Source: a virus
Virus record (IMG/VR): IMGVR_UViG_3300020047_008974
Strand: one strand, 5' to 3'
Length of the DNA: 35,437 nucleotides
Made by a program: the position numbers and the translations under genes. The notes under the pieces were generated by a model, which worked only from the letters and a program-made list of their open reading frames with translations, searched no databases and was not told the DNA's origin. Shown piece after piece: positions 2,490-35,437 of the stretch (position 1 is its first letter; each line of letters starts with the position of its first letter).

Positions 2490-3107
2490 TTAGAATGGTA
2501 CAGTATCTAAATCCTCAGCAGTAATAACAGGTACTCCTCCGTTTTTCATTGTTTGATATTCACTAGAACTAGTGATTTTATCTTTAATGAAATCTGGTTG
2601 TTTTTCAAATAATGCCTCGTTCCAATTATCATAACTTAATACCTGAGGTTCATTGATAGCTGGTGGACAAGTCATACCTTTAGGTAAAGGTGTGTAGTTT
2701 TCTAAACAAGCGAATACTCCTGAGTTATCTTTTTTAGGTTTATGAACTACTGTAACAAGTAGATCCTTACCAATTAAGCTTTCGATATCAAATACGTCCA
2801 TCATACCATCATTATCCAATTCGAGAGCTTTTGGATCACAAGCGGTAATAACTCTACGTAATGTTGATTTTTCATTAAATGATAATGTAAAGTCCTGACT
2901 GATAACTCGTGGCTGTTCTCCTTTCTCTTTATCAAACACGTGAAGTTCAGTAGGTAATTCAAATCCAATACGTACTTTGTTTTGGAGTGCTCCTTGGTAA
3001 CCAACAATGGTACCAATATGAATCATTTGATAAATACGTGCTGCATAACTTCCCGCTTCAATTGGCTCGACTGATTCACCTTTCTTATTTGTTGCTATAA
3101 TAGCCAT
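2490..3107 (-). CDS. Hypothetical early protein, possibly ssDNA-binding (DUF669-like guess)
   Basis: 205-aa ORF preceded by a long structured leader. The family guess rests only on a loose N-terminal resemblance. Confidence 0.6.
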   Translation of the reverse strand: MAIIATNKKGESVEPIEAGSYAARIYQMIHIGTIVGYQGALQNKVRIGFELPTELHVFDKEKGEQPRVISQDFTLSFNEKSTLRRVITACDPKALELDNDGMMDVFDIESLIGKDLLVTVVHKPKKDNSGVFACLENYTPLPKGMTCPPAINEPQVLSYDNWNEALFEKQPDFIKDKITSSSEYQTMKNGGVPVITAEDLDTVPF

Positions 3108-3293
3108 ATAATTTATGTGTTTTTAGTCTTTATAATAAACCAGGCCGACTAAGCGCTGGGGACTAGCAACGGGGCAACCGATCTCCTCGAGTACCCCAGT
3201 ACAGCCACCTTGTGTGCAACCAGAGAGTCGTCTTAATCCATCACCTAATTACTAGTCCTCAATGCTCCTACTCATAGGGTACCATACCCGGAT

Positions 3294-3309
3294 AATATAG
3301 CAAGGGGGT
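3294..3309 (-). promoter_or_regulatory. Candidate extended -10 promoter (TGCTATATT on minus strand) inside a conserved 14-mer
   Basis: The minus strand reads ACCCCCTTGCTATATT. The 14-mer TATAGCAAGGGGGT (3296-3309) recurs at 6734-6747, where it forms TGCTATAAT with a -35 box. Confidence 0.4.
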
Positions 3310-3552
3310 TATCAATTAAACTGTGCATATCTTTTATACCCGATTAGTGAGGTTGGTTAAGGAATAGAATACCTCACCAAAGCCCCAAAATTGACCTGTA
3401 CGGGGTTTTACATAAGAGGTCAGTAGTTTGTACCATAGCGACCTAAACCCTTGCTATTTTTTGGCAAATATGCAAGACTATTAATACATCTTTGATAGAT
3501 GTCAAGCGTTTAGTAAAGTATCGTTAAAAACTTAACCTTAATATTGCAATTT

Positions 3553-3650
3553 AGAAAAGAGAATCCTACAGCGGGGGTTCTTTTTTATTGGCTGGATCCT
3601 ACAGGTGATAGAAACACCTATCGTGGGGTATAGCCCTACCTGCAGGAGCC
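3553..3650 (-). terminator. Tandem hairpins terminating the upstream minus-strand operon; the inner one could act in both directions
   Basis: Hairpin 3590-3650 (GGCT..CCTACAGG / CCTGCAGGAGCC). Hairpin GAATCC 3561-3566 / GGGTTC 3575-3580 has T6 on the + side and TCTTTTCT on the - side. They lie just downstream of the stop at 3664. Confidence 0.55.
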
Positions 3651-3663
3651 AACCAACCACACG

Positions 3664-3993
3664 TTACCGTGTGCTAGCTAGCATATCTTGTTTCCAAACT
3701 TGCTCTTTCTTTTGTCTTTTCTTAGCAATATCAGGAGAAGCTGAGTACATACCTAAGTCATTTTGGAAATGAGCCCGGTGACGTTTTACATTATCCTCAC
3801 GAGGTAGATCCATAATATCGTCCAAATAAACATACTTTCTACTTTGGGTAGATCCGTCAGATAGTGTCATTGTTTCAACACGTATACTTTTAGGATAAAA
3901 TACCGCCCATATTTTTAATGTTAACCATTGATCAGAATCCCGGCTTTTTGGGAATTCTTTCAAGATACATTCGACCTGGTCTTTTAGAGTCAT
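3664..3993 (-). CDS. Hypothetical early protein
   Basis: 109-aa ORF, tightly packed with its neighbours. Confidence 0.65.
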   Translation of the reverse strand: MTLKDQVECILKEFPKSRDSDQWLTLKIWAVFYPKSIRVETMTLSDGSTQSRKYVYLDDIMDLPREDNVKRHRAHFQNDLGMYSASPDIAKKRQKKEQVWKQDMLASTR

Positions 3994-6660: not shown

Positions 6661-6731
6661 AAATAAATTAATCTATACATTAATCGATACTATGATAAGG
6701 GGAAGTGACTAGCCAACCCATATCTACTACA

Positions 6732-6760
6732 ATTATAGCAAGGGGGTAGTTATTATGCAA
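6732..6760 (-). promoter_or_regulatory. Candidate sigma70-type promoter for the leftward operon
   Basis: The minus strand reads TTGCAT (6760-6755), a 17-nt spacer, then TGC-TATAAT (6740-6732), about 70 nt upstream of ATG 6660. Confidence 0.5.
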
Positions 6761-6948
6761 CTAGACTATAACAAAGATTCGTGCTATTTCGATGTCCAGG
6801 ATTTGCACAAAAAAAGAGAGAATAGTATTATCACAAGTATACCCAATAGGGTACTTGCTGGGGCGAATTAAGATTAGCAAGTAAAGCATAAATCTTATAG
6901 GGCAGTTAGGTTGAAACGTAAATCAACCGGGGCGATGGTAAATCGATA

Positions 6949-7038
6949 ACTGCTCTCCCACTCTCAAGTAACGAACTTAATAAGTTTTTATAAATTTGCT
7001 TATTAAGCTCAACAGTTACTGGGGGGTGGGGGGGCTGT
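6949..7038 (+). ncRNA. Candidate structured RNA element: long imperfect hairpin closed by pyrimidine tract / G-tract pairing
   Basis: Pairings are 6953-6965 with 7022-7034 (13 pairs, 4 of them G.U), 6967-6972 with 7015-7020, and 6976-6984 with 6999-7007. The G.U pairs work only on the + strand. Confidence 0.3.
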
Positions 7039-7090
7039 CAAAAAGGGGCTCAAGTAAATAAATAACTTATAGAACTGCATTATTGAATTT

Positions 7091-7131
7091 GTATTACTGT
7101 ATTAGGATTGTATTAGGTATTAAATGTATAA
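7091..7131. repeat. Iteron-like array of GTATTA(GG) direct repeats
   Basis: Copies begin at 7091, 7099, 7110, 7117 and 7126 (the last is the degenerate GTATAA). TGTATTAGG occurs twice. The array is followed by TTATCCGCA (7132-7140) and the + promoter. Confidence 0.5.
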
Positions 7132-7149
7132 TTATCCGCAGGAAAATAT

Positions 7150-7178
7150 TTGACAAATAAAATTAATGGGAATATTAT
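7150..7178 (+). promoter_or_regulatory. Candidate sigma70-type promoter
   Basis: TTGACA 7150-7155, exactly 17-nt spacer, TATTAT 7173-7178. Confidence 0.5.
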
Positions 7179-7184
7179 TGAAAC

Positions 7185-7272
7185 AGGTAGATTTCGATTC
7201 CCCGTCGACCTACCCGCTCCAAAAGAGCTCATAAACCCTATTGCATTAAAGACACCACTGTGTGTCTTTTTT
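7185..7272 (+). ncRNA. Candidate ~85-90-nt small RNA, or a terminated leader
   Basis: Bounded by the promoter above and the terminator at 7250-7272. Predicted hairpins are 7186-7214 (GGTAG/CTACC plus TCGA/TCGA) and 7216-7228. No ORF. Confidence 0.35.
7250..7272 (+). terminator. Intrinsic terminator
   Basis: AGACAC 7250-7255 / GTGTCT 7262-7267, 6-nt loop, T-run to 7272. Confidence 0.6.
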
Positions 7273-7296
7273 GTTTGTTGTATCTTTTTTGTTATG

Positions 7297-7305
7297 TGCT
7301 ACTAT
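7297..7305 (+). promoter_or_regulatory. Candidate extended -10 box (TGCTACTAT) placing the start site on the ATG of the next gene
   Basis: The hexamer ends at 7305 and ATG 7312 is 7 nt downstream, implying a leaderless mRNA. Confidence 0.3.
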
Positions 7306-7311
7306 TAAATT

Positions 7312-9740: not shown

Positions 9741-11252
9741 ATGGCAAAACAAGTATTATTCGGACGTGATGCAAAAGATAAGATCAAGGTAGGTATTGAT
9801 ACTGTTTGTAAAGCAATCCGTACCACGATCGGTCCAAAAGGACGTAATGCATTTATAGATGACCAGATGCAACCAAAACTAACCAATGATGGTAAAACAA
9901 TAGCAATGTCTATTGAATTATCTGACAAGTTAGAAAATATGGGTGCTTGGTTAGTTAAAAACTCGTCCAGTCAAACAGATGACGATGCAGGAGATGGAAC
10001 ATCAACCACATCAGTACTACTGAAAGCAATTATTGATGAAGCTCAGAAACGACCAGAGAGTCCAATGGATATTAAACGCTCATTGATTAAAACAGGTGAA
10101 CAGGTAAAAAAGTACATTAAGGAAGCATCACAACCAATTAAAGACAACCAGATAGCAGATATTGCTACCATTTCTGCTGAATCAAGAGAATTAGGTGACT
10201 TGATAGCTAAGATTATAAAAGAATCAGGTAAAAACAAACCAATCAATATCGAGGATAACTCAGAGCCTGTTATTGATTATGAGATCAGTAAAGGATTAGA
10301 AACAAACGTAGGATTTGCACATCACGCATTTATTAACAACGCCCGGAACGGAACTTGTGAACTGGAAAACGTGGCAGTGTTTGCAACTGATAGACGTATC
10401 TCAAGCCTACCGGACTTAATGACATTACTTAGATTATTGGAGGTTAATAAAATAACCGACTTGATCCTATTGGTAAGTGACATTGAAAACTCAGTATTAG
10501 GAAGTCTAGTACAATCAAAGGCAGCTGGTATGTTTAACTCTTTAGTGATCCGAGCAAGAAACGCAGAACTGGAGGATATGGTAGCTATGACAGGTGCAAC
10601 TCTTGTATCAGAACTAACCGGCCTTAAGTTTAGTGACGTGAAACTGGAACATTTGGGTAGGGTTAAAAAAATTGTTGCTAGCGATAAGAAAACACTAATT
10701 ATCAATGAGTCACCGGCAGCAAAAGAAAAAGAGGATACACTTAGAGCATTAGCTGACAACACTAAAAACATTTATGAAAAGAAATTCCTAAATGATCGAG
10801 CTGATAAGTTATCAGGAGGTGTGGTAGTCATAAAAGTAGGTGCGCACGTTGATTCAGAACGAATTTACCAGAAGTATAAGATAGAGGATGCAGTGAACGC
10901 TACAAAATCCGCCCTGGAGGAGGGAATTGTAGAGGGAGGAGGTATGTGCTTCTATCGAATCTCTAATAAGTTCAAAGGTAATTCAATCGGTGAATCTATC
11001 CTACGCAACGCACTAAAGGAACCATTGAAAGCTATTATTGAAAATTGTGACGAGGATTACTCAGCTATTGTTAAACGATTACCAAATAAAAAAGGATATG
11101 ATGCCTCATCAGGTAAAGCAGTAGATATGATCAAGGCAGGTATTATTGATCCAGCCCGGGTAACCAGATCAGCATTTCAAAACGCATTAGAAACAGCTGC
11201 AACCTATATAACAATGGAGGTAGCTATTTCAGATATTAATGAAACCAAATAA
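9741..11252 (+). CDS. groEL: GroEL-like group I chaperonin (503 aa, shorter than cellular GroEL)
   Basis: AKQVLFGRDA..., TIGPKGRN, DDAGDGTSTTSVL (ATP-site GDGTTT-like), EEGIVEGGG and GIIDPARVTRSAFQNA align by eye with E. coli GroEL landmarks. No GGM tail. Confidence 0.9.
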   Translation: MAKQVLFGRDAKDKIKVGIDTVCKAIRTTIGPKGRNAFIDDQMQPKLTNDGKTIAMSIELSDKLENMGAWLVKNSSSQTDDDAGDGTSTTSVLLKAIIDEAQKRPESPMDIKRSLIKTGEQVKKYIKEASQPIKDNQIADIATISAESRELGDLIAKIIKESGKNKPINIEDNSEPVIDYEISKGLETNVGFAHHAFINNARNGTCELENVAVFATDRRISSLPDLMTLLRLLEVNKITDLILLVSDIENSVLGSLVQSKAAGMFNSLVIRARNAELEDMVAMTGATLVSELTGLKFSDVKLEHLGRVKKIVASDKKTLIINESPAAKEKEDTLRALADNTKNIYEKKFLNDRADKLSGGVVVIKVGAHVDSERIYQKYKIEDAVNATKSALEEGIVEGGGMCFYRISNKFKGNSIGESILRNALKEPLKAIIENCDEDYSAIVKRLPNKKGYDASSGKAVDMIKAGIIDPARVTRSAFQNALETAATYITMEVAISDINETK

Positions 11253-27140: not shown

Positions 27141-27443
27141 ATGGACTCTAACCAATTCAGAGAACTACAAAATACCATTGCTGAATCTATCGAAAAGAAT
27201 GTAAATGGGAAAATCCGCAACTTGACTCAAAAGGTTGATGATTATATCAAAACAGATCTCGAACATAAAGAAACTGAACGAGCTGAAACAAATGAATGGC
27301 GAAAAGGGGCTGATGAAAAACTACAATTCGTCGTTGATCTACAGGGTTTTGGTAAAGTAACAAAATACGTTATGGGGTTTATAATATCAATTGGGGGAAC
27401 TATTGCAATATTAGTCGGTTGGTTTCATAATAAGAGTAACTAG
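27141..27443 (+). CDS. C-terminally membrane-anchored protein in the lysis neighbourhood
   Basis: 100 aa with a charged helical N-terminus and the C-terminal helix YVMGFIISIGGTIAILVGWF. Confidence 0.55.
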   Translation: MDSNQFRELQNTIAESIEKNVNGKIRNLTQKVDDYIKTDLEHKETERAETNEWRKGADEKLQFVVDLQGFGKVTKYVMGFIISIGGTIAILVGWFHNKSN

Positions 27444-29812: not shown

Positions 29813-31678
29813 ATGGCCTCTAGATATTGGGTCGGTGGTACTGCTAACTGGGATGCAACAATTGGTACAAAATGGGCAACAACCTCAGGTGGAGCAGGAG
29901 GTGCTGCTGTGCCAACAACATCAGATAACGTATTTTTTGATGCAAATAGTGGATCGGGTACAGTAACTATTGCAATCGTAGATGTAACTTGTTTAAATAT
30001 AGATTTTACTGGATTCACAGGAACATTAGCAGGTTCAACAACACAACTACAACCTTTAGGTAATATTACATTGGGATCAGGTATGACTTGGAGTCATTCA
30101 GCTGTACTTAACTGGTTTGGAACAGGAAGTTCAACATTTACAAGTAATGGAAAAACTACCACATCAACATTACAATTTACAGGGACTGGTACAATGACAT
30201 TACAAGATGATTTCACTAATACTGGAGCAGGTGGATTGTCACATACATCAGGAACTATTGATGCAAATAATAAAAATGTAAATATAATTAATTATAATGG
30301 TTCACCAGCAGGTACTAAAACACTTACAATGGGTTCAGGTACGTGGACCTTATCAGGAACAGGTACTGTGTGGACTGCATCAAATGTATCGACACTTAAT
30401 GCAAACACATCAGTTATTAAAGTAATTGATACAAGTGCATCAACGTGTATATTTGCAGGTTCAGGTAAAACATACAGTACGGTTTGGTTAGCACGTGGAA
30501 CAAGTTCAGGTATTAACACTATTTCAGGTTCTAACACCTTTGCAATATTAAAAGATAACGGAACAGTAGCCCATACTACACGATTCACAGCAGGAACCAC
30601 ACAAATCATTTCAACAGCCTCAGGATGGCAAATATCGGGCAATTCGGGGCAATTAATCACCATTAACTCCACAACAACAGGTACTCATACTTTATCCTGT
30701 GCAAGTGGTAACATTTCAGCAGATTACTTGGATATTCAACACTCAGTGGCTCAAGGAGGTGCAAAATGGTTTGCAGGTGCCAACAGTACCAATAACCAGG
30801 CAACAGCAACAGCAGGTAGTGGTTGGATATTCCAACAAGTGAAATCCCTTATTATTGCAGGAGGTGGTGGAGGAGGTATTGGAGCAACCGTTGGAGCTCG
30901 TTGGGGAGGAGGTGGAGGAGCGGGGGGTTACCAAGAAAATGCTGCGGTATCTGTCACGGCTCAGGCTTATACTATTACTGTGGGAACAGGTGGAAGTGGT
31001 GGTGCAGGAGCTGGAGATAACGGAACAGATAGTTCTGCTTTTGGTATTACTTCTACTGGTGGAGGAGGAGGAGCTGCTGCAACATCAGGAACGGGTCTTA
31101 CTGGAGGTTCAGGTGGAGGAGGAGCAGGAGCCGCTGGAGGTACTGGGGTTCTTGCAAACGGAGGGGCAGGTACGGGTGGACAAGGAAATAATGGAGGTGC
31201 AGGATTTAGTGGTAACAGTTCTACTGGAGCTGGAGGTTCAGGAGGAGGTTCTGGCGGTGCTGGAGGTAATGCTTCTGCGTCAACAGGAGGAAATGGAGGG
31301 GCAGGTACAGCATCAAGTATCAATGGCTCATCAGTTACACGAGCTGGTGGAGGAGGAGGTGGAGGTGTTACTACAGGTGGTACTGGGGGTTCAGGTGGAG
31401 GAGGAGCTGGAGGAACAGATGGAGCAGGAGCAAACGCTACAGCAAATACTGGTTCAGGTGGAGGAGGAGCTAAGAACGGATTTACAGGAGGAAATGGTGC
31501 AGATGGGGTTGTAATTATCTCATTTATAACTACAGATTTTGCAGACTTAGGTTGGACTTGCACTGGTGGAACAATTACCACTTCTGGTTCAAATACAATT
31601 CATACATTCAATAGTAGTGGAACATTTACTATTACTGCTTCTGCTACAAATAACGCACAATTTCTAGCATTTATGTAA
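29813..31678 (+). CDS. Glycine-rich tail fibre or spike-like protein
   Basis: 621 aa. The N-terminal half is Thr/Ser/Gly beta-rich. Residues ~345-570 are GGxGG-type runs ending in GGNGADGVVIISF, like the phage glycine-rich domain family. Confidence 0.65.
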   Translation: MASRYWVGGTANWDATIGTKWATTSGGAGGAAVPTTSDNVFFDANSGSGTVTIAIVDVTCLNIDFTGFTGTLAGSTTQLQPLGNITLGSGMTWSHSAVLNWFGTGSSTFTSNGKTTTSTLQFTGTGTMTLQDDFTNTGAGGLSHTSGTIDANNKNVNIINYNGSPAGTKTLTMGSGTWTLSGTGTVWTASNVSTLNANTSVIKVIDTSASTCIFAGSGKTYSTVWLARGTSSGINTISGSNTFAILKDNGTVAHTTRFTAGTTQIISTASGWQISGNSGQLITINSTTTGTHTLSCASGNISADYLDIQHSVAQGGAKWFAGANSTNNQATATAGSGWIFQQVKSLIIAGGGGGGIGATVGARWGGGGGAGGYQENAAVSVTAQAYTITVGTGGSGGAGAGDNGTDSSAFGITSTGGGGGAAATSGTGLTGGSGGGGAGAAGGTGVLANGGAGTGGQGNNGGAGFSGNSSTGAGGSGGGSGGAGGNASASTGGNGGAGTASSINGSSVTRAGGGGGGGVTTGGTGGSGGGGAGGTDGAGANATANTGSGGGGAKNGFTGGNGADGVVIISFITTDFADLGWTCTGGTITTSGSNTIHTFNSSGTFTITASATNNAQFLAFM

Positions 31679-34921: not shown

Positions 34922-35437
34922 ATGGCAATTACAACCCCACTAGCCTCAAACGCTAATAAAACAACTTCATATATAAATAATGCCTTTGCTAAGAATTCAG
35001 GTAATACTTTAAGTAATCAATTAGGTGTTAATGCTAAAGCTCCGGCTCCAGCAACATCAGGAAACACTACCATCAAACCTAATATGTCAGTGGCTCCTAA
35101 TATGTCACCGAAATTCATAGGACCAATGGATACTAATTCAGATGCAACAAAGGTAAAGAATATGCAAACTCAGCTCAATGCTAAGAATGCTGGTCAACCA
35201 GGATGGACTCCACTACAAGTGGACGGTATCCTTGGACCTAAAACAAAAGCTGCTCAATCATTCAAACCTACATCTACTAATTCAGGAACAACAGGAGGTT
35301 CAAGCTATTCGTCAGGTAGTACAACAGGAGGTTCATATCAATCACAACCACTACAATACCAACCATCTCAATATCAAGCTCCTACACAGCAACAGCCAGC
35401 TCAATCAAATGAGATGAGTCAAAACCAGGCATTGTTA
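34922..35437 (+). CDS. 5' part of the wrap-around gene: N-terminal peptidoglycan-binding-like segment
   Basis: ATG 34922 after TAAtactat. Hand translation MAITTPLASNANK... contains NAGQPGWTPLQVDGILGPKTKAAQ (PG_binding_1-like DGxxGxxT). Open to the window end and continues in 1..1330. Confidence 0.8.
   Translation, partial: MAITTPLASNANKTTSYINNAFAKNSGNTLSNQLGVNAKAPAPATSGNTTIKPNMSVAPNMSPKFIGPMDTNSDATKVKNMQTQLNAKNAGQPGWTPLQVDGILGPKTKAAQSFKPTSTNSGTTGGSSYSSGSTTGGSYQSQPLQYQPSQYQAPTQQQPAQSNEMSQNQALL
35317..35437. repeat. Terminal direct repeat, copy 2
   Basis: Identical to 1-121. Confidence 0.95.

Follow-up and report, generated by a model that had tools for sequence, protein, structure and literature searches.

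A compound regulatory region with a structured leader RNA and a candidate small RNA upstream of a phage gene for an SSB-like protein

Introduction

Autogenous control of single-stranded DNA-binding protein (SSB) synthesis is a textbook case of gene regulation whose details have been worked out only in T4-type phages. That a structured element can precede a phage SSB gene is not new, and the operators of T4 and RB69 have been characterized. The T4 operator comprises a folded 5′ element followed by more than 40 nt of less structured RNA, which holds UUAAA/UAAA repeats and the ribosome-binding site and along which gp32 spreads cooperatively (PMC535899). A 2023 survey described 12 candidate structures directly upstream of GP32 genes, and Rfam was reported to be without a model for the gene 32 pseudoknot (PMC10690425). 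STAXI is a structured motif that often lies near the SSB genes of mobile elements, and it may act as RNA or as ssDNA (PMC2864571).

Here, we analyzed a non-coding island in a viral DNA stretch of 35,437 nucleotides, which we call the window. The assembly is circular, with positions 1-121 repeated at 35317-35437, and corresponds to a phage genome unit of ~35.3 kb. The genes in the window include those for a large terminase, a portal, a major head protein, a GroEL-like chaperonin and a ParB-methyltransferase fusion, and an SU10-type adaptor is present in a close relative. No DNA polymerase, primase or helicase was detected among the genes of the phage. The island (3108-3663) lies within a leftward gene block that extends from 6660 to 2084, and it is flanked by a 109-aa gene (3664-3993, minus strand) and a 205-aa gene (2490-3107, minus strand). 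Like the gene 32 operators of T4 and RB69, the element that we describe occupies the 5′ leader of a phage SSB gene. The analysis yielded a covarying RNA motif that has no Rfam model and a candidate phage small RNA.

Results

The island contains several elements

The original prediction divided the island into tandem hairpins, a block of further hairpins with a long-range complement, a 14-mer box and a G+C-rich segment, and all four were found where it had placed them. The island had also been described as devoid of a credible ORF, in agreement with our finding of no ORF of at least 30 aa lying wholly within it; the ORFs near it are a 40-aa ORF with a GTG start (3538-3660, minus strand) and a 55-aa plus-strand ORF that extends into the neighboring gene. 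The 9-mer ATCCTACAG occurs twice as reported, at 3563-3571 and 3596-3604. The hand count of about 54% G+C for 3141-3290 was accurate: the value is 0.54 versus 0.379 for the whole window, which places the segment in the top 1% of 150-nt windows. The island folded better than its shuffles in both senses (z = -3.84 in the minus sense and -2.99 in the plus sense). No tRNA or tmRNA was detected by ARAGORN, and a pseudogene remnant was ruled out, as conservation peaks at the structure and indels are not multiples of three.

The island is a compound regulatory region with several elements rather than one. The segment at 3310-3552 had been treated as a single structured block, and this part of the prediction did not hold; the segment instead divides into a small-RNA unit and a poorly conserved spacer. 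The features of the leftward unit are as follows.

3294-3309, minus strand: leader promoter (the 14-mer box), CCCCCTTGCTATATT, read as TGC + TATATT, an extended -10
3140-3289, minus strand: structured leader RNA, predicted from covariation, independent folds and RNAalifold
3267-3289, minus strand: small 5′ hairpins at the 5′ end of the leader
3248-3258 with 3160-3170, minus strand: helix A, the outer helix
3235-3245 with 3173-3183, minus strand: helix B
3228-3231 with 3187-3190, minus strand: helix C, short, (A)CGA with UCG(U)
3219-3225 with 3194-3200, minus strand: helix D, YUCUGGU with ACUGGGR
3140-3159, minus strand: T hairpin, with the loop UUAGUCGG in the window
3108-3139, minus strand: A/U-rich single-stranded tail up to the ATG, UUUAUUAUAAAGACUAAAAACACAUAAAUUAU
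2490-3107, minus strand: 205-aa gene whose product is modeled as an OB-fold SSB-like protein; first in line behind the leader

The leftward promoter

The 14-mer TATAGCAAGGGGGT is present as an exact copy at both 3296-3309 and 6734-6747, as had been noted. Its proposed role as a promoter gained support, in that the coding strand reads TGCTATATT, an extended -10, and the box recurs at the head of the leftward block, where the second copy (6734-6747) reads TGCTATAAT upstream of the first gene of the block. The box is invariant in close relatives. The window has seven sites of the form TTGCWATWWT, where 1.8 would be expected, and four of these sites lie in or adjoin the island. In two related loci, L014 and L167, the promoter scan preferred an assignment in which TTGCTA is possibly the -35 hexamer for a -10 element TGCTATACT located 17 nt downstream. 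Because of this alternative assignment, the predicted transcription start of the leader is uncertain by ~25 nt, and it would lie upstream of helix A either way. The 10-bp long-range complement of the original prediction exists and extends to 10-13 nt (3294-3306 with 3448-3460); it is simply the leftward promoter box and the rightward box facing apart.

Structure of the leader RNA

A structured 5′ leader of ~180 nt had been proposed for this mRNA, with covariation on homologous islands as a check, and the helices did prove to be conserved with covariation. Nine sequences, each folded independently, gave a common nested architecture. RNAalifold, run on a sequence-only MAFFT alignment of nine sequences, recovered A, B, C, D and T, and 14 of 29 pairs were compensatory, meaning that at least one sequence carried a compensatory change in the pair. 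We also built a covariation alignment (A6) of seven lineages, in which blocks were aligned by hand under guidance of the structure. Pairing was found in 91.3% of its cells versus 75.0% with shuffled partners and 28-49% with slid partners; 19 of its 28 pairs had changed on both sides, and none of 500 shuffles reached any of five covariation measures. G.U pairs accounted for 35 cells, and pairing on the opposite strand would fall to 73%. Since the helices need these G.U pairs, among them an invariant tandem in helix D, the mRNA strand is the folded strand. From these comparisons, a conserved, strand-specific and covarying leader structure between the promoter and an SSB-type start codon is well supported.

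The individual helices listed earlier had mixed fates. The pairing GGACTAG/CTAGTCC is helix A and covaries, and GGGTA..TACCC is a small 5′ hairpin whose pairing is kept by a compensatory change in L004. The helix CTGGGG (3156-3161) with CCCCAG (3194-3199) is not conserved; its bases are instead part of helix D and of the point where helix A meets the T hairpin. GTGAGGT/ACCTCAC is present in the sequence, but 6 of 10 close relatives have a mismatch in it with no compensating change.

Helix D contains an invariant tandem U.G/G.U followed by a G-C pair. The T hairpin is separate from A-D; its stem starts with CAG...CUG, and its loop carries (U)GGUCGR. The tail that follows measures 32-45 nt across lineages, is unpaired in the MFE fold of every lineage and carries two to three UAAA/UUAAA motifs per lineage. 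In the window, UAAA occurs three times in the 45 nt before the ATG, the second-highest count of 35 genes, and the tail has no Shine-Dalgarno sequence before the ATG. A pseudoknot pairing between UUAGUC of the T loop and GACUAA of the tail is possible in the clade of the window and partly in L001, and it is not possible in L014, L024, L252 and L017. Pseudoknots of the T loop with CGAC of the core or with the tail were rejected as not conserved, and the loop is kept in short leaders that lack the core.

The search of Rfam that had been suggested was run and found no known family. With the Rfam 15 covariance models, including STAXI, c4, riboswitches and ribozymes, there was no match in the window at gathering score; a scan of 2900-3900 at E values up to 10 returned chance-level matches only, and a scan of seven related loci gave none at E values up to 1.

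Distribution among relatives

Our close-relative set consisted of ten near-identical island-bearing contigs from ENA, JGI and Logan. Across these ten, the gene-proximal 160 nt (3108-3267) are nearly invariant, and the most variable alignment columns, 224-330, correspond to ~3335-3440 of the window. Homologous islands or leaders preceding the same protein family were found at L012 (protein 83% identical), L014/L015 (71%) and L167 (70%), with L167 carrying the leader and a short upstream part. A homologous leader precedes a different downstream gene at L169/L170, L251 and L252/L253. One of these loci, L169, was reached by way of the 133-aa downstream protein, for which only three homologues were found.

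Of ~150 loci with a homologue of the 205-aa protein, most have a gap of just 0-120 nt before the gene and lack the A-D domain; therefore, the long island with its A-D domain is an accessory of a few lineages and not a requirement. A gap of ~260 nt upstream of more distant homologues (the L108 group) was considered and set aside, as it encodes a small ORF and is unrelated. Blastn searches of GenBank phage records (INPHARED) in near and distant modes gave no match, and exact and gapped DNA pattern scans of IMG/VR gave no match to the full leader. The pattern scan of GTDB genomes gave one match, in a Tenderia MAG, which is possibly due to chance and is not matched by models R1/R2. Among ~250 loci searched with nhmmer profiles of the island and the leader, only the known lineages were recovered.

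Modular organization of the leader

The leader is modular. The short leaders at L001, L017 and L024, which serve the OB-fold family, contain only the promoter, the hairpin with the GGUCGG loop and an A-rich tail. A GUCGR-loop hairpin lies within 150 nt upstream of the SSB start at 30 of 213 loci, compared with ~12 expected from its overall density, and the matches include the more distant gp32-like loci L171, L181, L210, L226 and L247. This hairpin is located 35-100 nt before SSB genes of both families.

The second module, the C/D core, was modeled with Infernal, and a test model was built without L092 and L205. The only two matches of the C/D model in 436 kb, at 25.3 bits (E = 0.007) and 17.9 bits (E = 0.43), were L092 and L205, and covariance models of the core found no members beyond these two in 800 kb of related loci. 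In both, the core follows closely on promoter-like sites at the operon head, and the SSB gene is third or fourth. The C/D core is therefore tied to the SSB operon, though not always to the SSB start codon.

The downstream SSB genes

The original prediction named the 205-aa product a possible ssDNA-binding protein, and structural modeling points the same way, to an OB-fold SSB-like protein. The protein matches phrog_862 (unknown function) and has no Pfam match. Its AlphaFold model (pLDDT 82.8) retrieved PrgE, an SSB-like OB-fold protein of pCF10, as the top PDB match in Foldseek (E = 6e-6), followed by many bacterial SSBs with E values of ~0.05 or worse; matches in the viral library BFVD include DUF669 proteins. 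From this predicted fold, we regard the ssDNA-binding assignment as reasonable.

The leader of L169 precedes a 171-aa protein whose similarity to the 205-aa protein is undetectable. This 171-aa protein matches PHROGs annotated as single strand DNA binding protein, and one member of its family has the gp32-like domain PF08804. The proteins at L251 and L252 are 77% and 71% identical to it, and both loci carry the leader. Because homologous leaders stand before two dissimilar SSB families, the leader has stayed in place through a non-homologous replacement of the SSB gene.

The rightward unit, the terminator and the spacer

Upstream of the leader, the island contains a second predicted unit that is directed away from the SSB gene, with these features.

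3310-3447, no strand: variable spacer of ~140 nt between back-to-back promoters, ~35-170 nt long among lineages
3451-3460, plus strand: promoter candidate TTGCTATTTT, extended -10-like, one of the seven TTGCWATWWT sites
~3467-3590, plus strand: candidate small RNA of ~100-125 nt with an approximate 5′ end, directed away from the SSB gene
3553-3586, both strands: predicted two-way intrinsic terminator with the stem-loop GAAUCC-UACAGCG-GGGGUUC at 3561-3580
3590-3654, minus strand: long hairpin directly after the stop codon of the 109-aa gene, GGUUGGCUCCUGCAGGU...ACCUGUAGGAUCCAGCC, present in the MFE fold

The claim of a plus strand-competent terminator at 3561-3586 was borne out, as T6 follows the stem-loop on the plus strand (3581-3586); on the minus strand, the stem-loop is flanked by UCUCUUUUCU (3560-3553). 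The terminator would thus be shared between the two directions and could also end the upstream operon. Homologous terminators are present in L014, L169, L251 and L167, and the scan tool called those of L014 and L251. The long hairpin at 3590-3654 is kept by compensatory change in L007 (CAGAC/GUCUG), L014 (CUGCAGGUAUA/UAUACCUGCAG) and L251 (CUGUAGAGAUA/UAUCUCUACAG).

Strong plus-strand sigma-70 promoters with TG were found in L169, L167, L251 and L014, ~100 nt from the terminator. In these four diverged relatives, taken in that order, the rightward promoters read TTGACA-17-TATTAT and TTGACA-18-TATATT (11/12 each), TTGCCA-17-TATTAT (10/12) and TTGACT-17-TAGTAT (9/12). The TTGACA/TTGCCA of the relatives is homologous to the box at 3451-3460 and acts as the -35 hexamer. 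In the window, the promoter scan tool did not call this box. The rightward unit thus has its own promoter and intrinsic terminator conserved in the relatives, with a promoter in the window that is only extended -10-like. It probably makes an RNA of ~100 nt that ends at the two-way terminator.

The putative small RNA has a conserved core at 3504-3525 (CAAGCGUUUAGUAAAGUAUCGUU; CAAGCG..GUAUCGUU in the window and GAAACGCGCUUGUAUCGU in relatives). The unit also contains a hairpin at 3486-3502 and an 8-nt palindrome, AUAGCUAU or AUUGCAAU, of which the window has AUUGCAAU at 3543-3550. RNAalifold found no conserved fold in the body of the small RNA beyond the terminator. Pairing with the adjacent leader was rejected, as the duplex energies fell within 1.4 sd of those of shuffles. 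The putative small RNA would be antisense to any transcript that enters from the upstream operon by read-through or that comes from the TTGCAATATT box (3540-3549).

The spacer carries a DnaA-box-like ATATGCACA at 3322-3330 (minus strand), the position of which is conserved, and the corresponding 9-mer is a perfect TTATCCACA in L169 and L251. A cluster of DnaA boxes or an origin in the island was rejected, as the island holds one box only, the window shows no enrichment of the motif and the skew minimum lies elsewhere.

Discussion

A putative mechanism for the control of SSB synthesis

Overall, after comparing the locus with its relatives, we read the island as a compact region in which two transcription units lie back to back and in which the leader exerts T4 gene 32-style post-transcriptional control of SSB synthesis. 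We give this joint reading a rough probability of 0.55, and leader control of this kind, which we propose by analogy, is the likeliest role of the element. The extended -10 promoter in the 14-mer box would start the leftward mRNA. The first ~150 nt of the message form the conserved fold, with helices A-D stacked and followed by the hairpin with the GUCGG loop, and ~32 nt of A/U-rich single strand carry the start codon of the SSB-like gene. When free SSB exceeds the available ssDNA, the protein would nucleate beside the folded element and spread cooperatively along the unstructured A/U-rich stretch, blocking the entry of ribosomes. The folded 5′ part may also protect the message. Non-specific, cooperative binding of single-stranded RNA would suffice for such a mechanism, which would explain how one leader can serve two unrelated SSB families.

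The likeness to T4 gene 32 on which the original prediction drew holds in part. An SSB-like product, a conserved leader and a gp32-like gene in relatives agree with it, whereas the putative autoregulation itself faces counter-evidence, in that the core domain also heads operons whose SSB gene comes third or fourth. Three findings speak against a pure gene 32 model, namely, that no pseudoknot is conserved across the lineages, that the core is remote from the SSB start in L092 and L205 and that the GGUCGR loop is conserved over both SSB families. The context of these two loci fits an operon-level role, such as stability, processing or antitermination, better than it fits occlusion of a start codon. 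The conservation of the loop over two unrelated SSB families hints at a sequence-specific partner other than the SSB.

Alternative explanations

The leader could mainly be an element for mRNA stability or processing, either as a 5′ stem-loop that protects against RNase E or as an RNase III site at which the SSB message is cut from upstream read-through, with no feedback by the SSB. Long irregular hairpins directly after the promoter and after the terminator, the leading position of the core in the multi-gene operons of L092 and L205 and the small hairpin at the very 5′ end are all consistent with such a function. However, the repeated link with SSB genes of two families and the conserved GUCGR loop just before the SSB start would be left unexplained, and the internal-loop bases and tandem G.U pairs are conserved beyond the need of a generic stabilizer. 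We consider this account possible but rather unlikely.

A further proposal, which we hold to be unlikely, involves a sequence-specific partner. Here, helices A-D and the GUCGR hairpin would form a new class of cis-acting RNA, a cassette specific to phage SSB operons that passes between unrelated SSB genes and is either read by the partner or serves as a transcription-primed ssDNA signal, with the small RNA taking part in the switch. The partner might be a host factor, or it might be the SSBs themselves through a shared mode of RNA recognition. In the ssDNA variant, the cassette would be a replication signal in a phage that lacks replication enzymes of its own.

It is also conceivable, although doubtful, that the C/D core (ACGA..YUCUGG..CUGGGR..UAC..UCG) binds a small molecule, or a host or phage protein, in the manner of an aptamer and would thereby time the expression of the replication and recombination operon. 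Its invariant bases cluster in the internal loop and the tandem G.U, flanked by helices of free sequence, it has no Rfam match, and the model built without L092 and L205 finds just those two in 436 kb (E = 0.007 and 0.43). Nevertheless, only about nine lineages are known, no expression platform in the form of a terminator or anti-RBS pairing is seen, and the gene context is narrow, being that of SSB operons and not metabolic.

Could the folded element instead act as ssDNA? On the strand that transcription from the adjacent promoter displaces, it would serve the host replisome as a signal for priming or as an origin, and the phage has no detected polymerase, primase or helicase. The DnaA-box-like 9-mer, perfect in both L169 and L251, is found a short way upstream of the promoter, and the loops carry GTC and CTG, which are the trinucleotides recognized by the T7 and E. 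coli primases. Yet there is a single DnaA-like box whose motif is not enriched in the window, and the cumulative GC skew reaches its minimum at 6730, within the other non-coding region. Moreover, the helices rely heavily on G.U pairs, whereas G.T pairing is weak in DNA, and the element always has the sense of the mRNA, with a promoter before it and a start codon after it. We regard this function as improbable.

Finally, the proposal that the whole island is one free-standing plus-strand ncRNA of ~440 nt, running from TATAAT at 3131-3136 to the terminator at 3561-3586, is very hard to sustain even though the plus strand folds better than its shuffles (z = -2.99) and the terminator works in that direction, for the conserved helices have G.U pairs in the minus sense only and lose 18 points of pairing on the plus strand, the TATAAT lies inside the A/U-rich tail, the middle ~140 nt show poor conservation and range from 35 to 170 nt in length, and the plus-strand promoter of the relatives is only ~100 nt from the terminator. 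What the relatives do support is the shorter plus-strand RNA (~3467-3590), which ends at the same terminator.

Implications

Uncultured podophages of freshwater and wastewater share a folded leader that is much larger than the T4 element and that is kept even where an unrelated SSB gene has taken the place of the first. If the element is an SSB operator, then the logic of gene 32, a folded nucleation site joined to an unstructured start, would hold as a general solution, whatever the protein family. It would also offer a compact, testable RNA for the question of how non-specific ssDNA-binding proteins select their own message.

Comparison with known systems

Lambda OOP RNA and P22 sar RNA are examples of short phage RNAs, antisense or regulatory, that have a promoter and an intrinsic terminator of their own. 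The rightward unit resembles them in its predicted design: it is ~100 nt long, has its own sigma-70 promoter and a Rho-independent terminator, and opposes read-through from the upstream operon. It has no sequence or Rfam similarity to them, and its predicted pairing with the adjacent leader is no better than that of shuffles.

With STAXI, the leader shares the link to SSB genes and the question of whether the structured motif works as RNA or as ssDNA. In contrast, STAXI is a tandemly repeated pseudoknot with UUCG loops, and cmscan gave no match to it in the window or the relatives. The GP32 candidate structures of the 2023 survey (PMC10690425) are likewise conserved structures before a phage SSB gene that are proposed to regulate translation and have no Rfam model; judged by description only, the leader differs from them in that it also serves an SSB family that is not gp32.

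The closest parallel is the gene 32 operator of T4 and RB69. In both systems, a folded 5′ element is followed by an unstructured A/U-rich stretch, here of 30-45 nt, that has UAAA/UUAAA motifs and contains the start codon, and the downstream gene is gp32-like in L169, L251 and L252. The folded part differs in scale, as it comprises ~150 nt with four stacked helices and a loop-conserved hairpin here versus a pseudoknot of ~28 nt in T4 and RB69, and the conserved-loop hairpin occupies the place equivalent to the nucleating pseudoknot of T4. The A/U-rich tail, at 32-45 nt, is shorter than that of T4 and lacks a Shine-Dalgarno sequence. The window protein also belongs to a different SSB family (OB-fold, PrgE/DUF669-like); it is no gp32 homologue (PF08804), having neither a Pfam match nor similarity to the gp32-like protein of L169. 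The leader has no sequence similarity to the T4 and RB69 operators, and the repression that we propose for it follows from analogy with them. Set apart from the 12 GP32 candidates by description only, what is new here is a leader that is far larger than the T4 pseudoknot, serves an SSB other than gp32 and belongs to no Rfam family.

Genome form and gene content

The first 121 nt of the window are repeated exactly as its last 121 nt (1-121 = 35317-35437), and the window is a complete genome of ~35.3 kb that was assembled as a circle. A GroEL-like chaperonin gene of 503 aa is encoded at 9741-11252 (phrog_5725, E = 7e-107), and in this 35-kb phage neither a DNA polymerase nor a primase or helicase was detected. 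The run of GGN-rich direct repeats at 30845-31436 is a glycine-rich coding repeat that lies inside a 621-aa ORF (29813-31678) of the structural gene block.

Non-coding region between the divergent gene blocks

A second large non-coding region is located at 6661-7311, where the leftward and rightward gene blocks diverge, and it contains the following features:

6730, minimum of the cumulative GC skew
6734-6747, 14-mer promoter box (second occurrence, exact)
~7021-7036, G-run
~7178-7222, stretch resembling the 3′ half of a tRNA
~7248-7275, terminator-like hairpin

ARAGORN called no tRNA at the tRNA-like stretch. We regard this region as a candidate replication origin or, alternatively, as a candidate for the main region of early control.

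Promoter-like and DnaA-box-like sites

The extended -10-like motif TTGCWATWWT occurs at 7 sites in the window compared with 1.8 expected, including these further sites:

3092-3101 (+), antisense to the SSB-like gene, inside its codons 2-6
3540-3549 (-)
27403-27412 (+)
30540-30549 (+)

The site at 3092-3101 matches the complement of the promoter box (3290-3303) at 12 of 14 positions. This probably arises as a side effect of conservation of the N-terminal residues MAIIAT, and it is not retained in the related locus L014.

Directly upstream of the leader promoter, a DnaA-box-like 9-mer is present at 3322-3330 (-), and its position is conserved between the window and the spacers (the variable stretches between the two back-to-back promoters) of L169 and L251, two related loci with gp32-like genes. 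The 9-mer reads ATATGCACA in the window and TTATGCGCA in L014, and both L169 and L251 carry the perfect TTATCCACA. Only this one box is found here, and the motif is not enriched across the window.

Upstream regions in related loci

Among more distant homologues of the 205-aa SSB-like gene (L108, L115, L117, L123, L126, L139 and L049), the medium-sized upstream gap of ~260 nt is not a leader; it contains a conserved small ORF (ATGAAAGTAATCAAAGCAAAG...), which is preceded by an A/T-rich promoter region. The structured mRNA leader of the window is without the GAAA-tetraloop hairpin of gp32-like gene leaders; in the latter (L169, 1640-1676; L251; L252; L171), this additional small hairpin, with its GAAA (GNRA) tetraloop, lies ~10 nt before the ATG.
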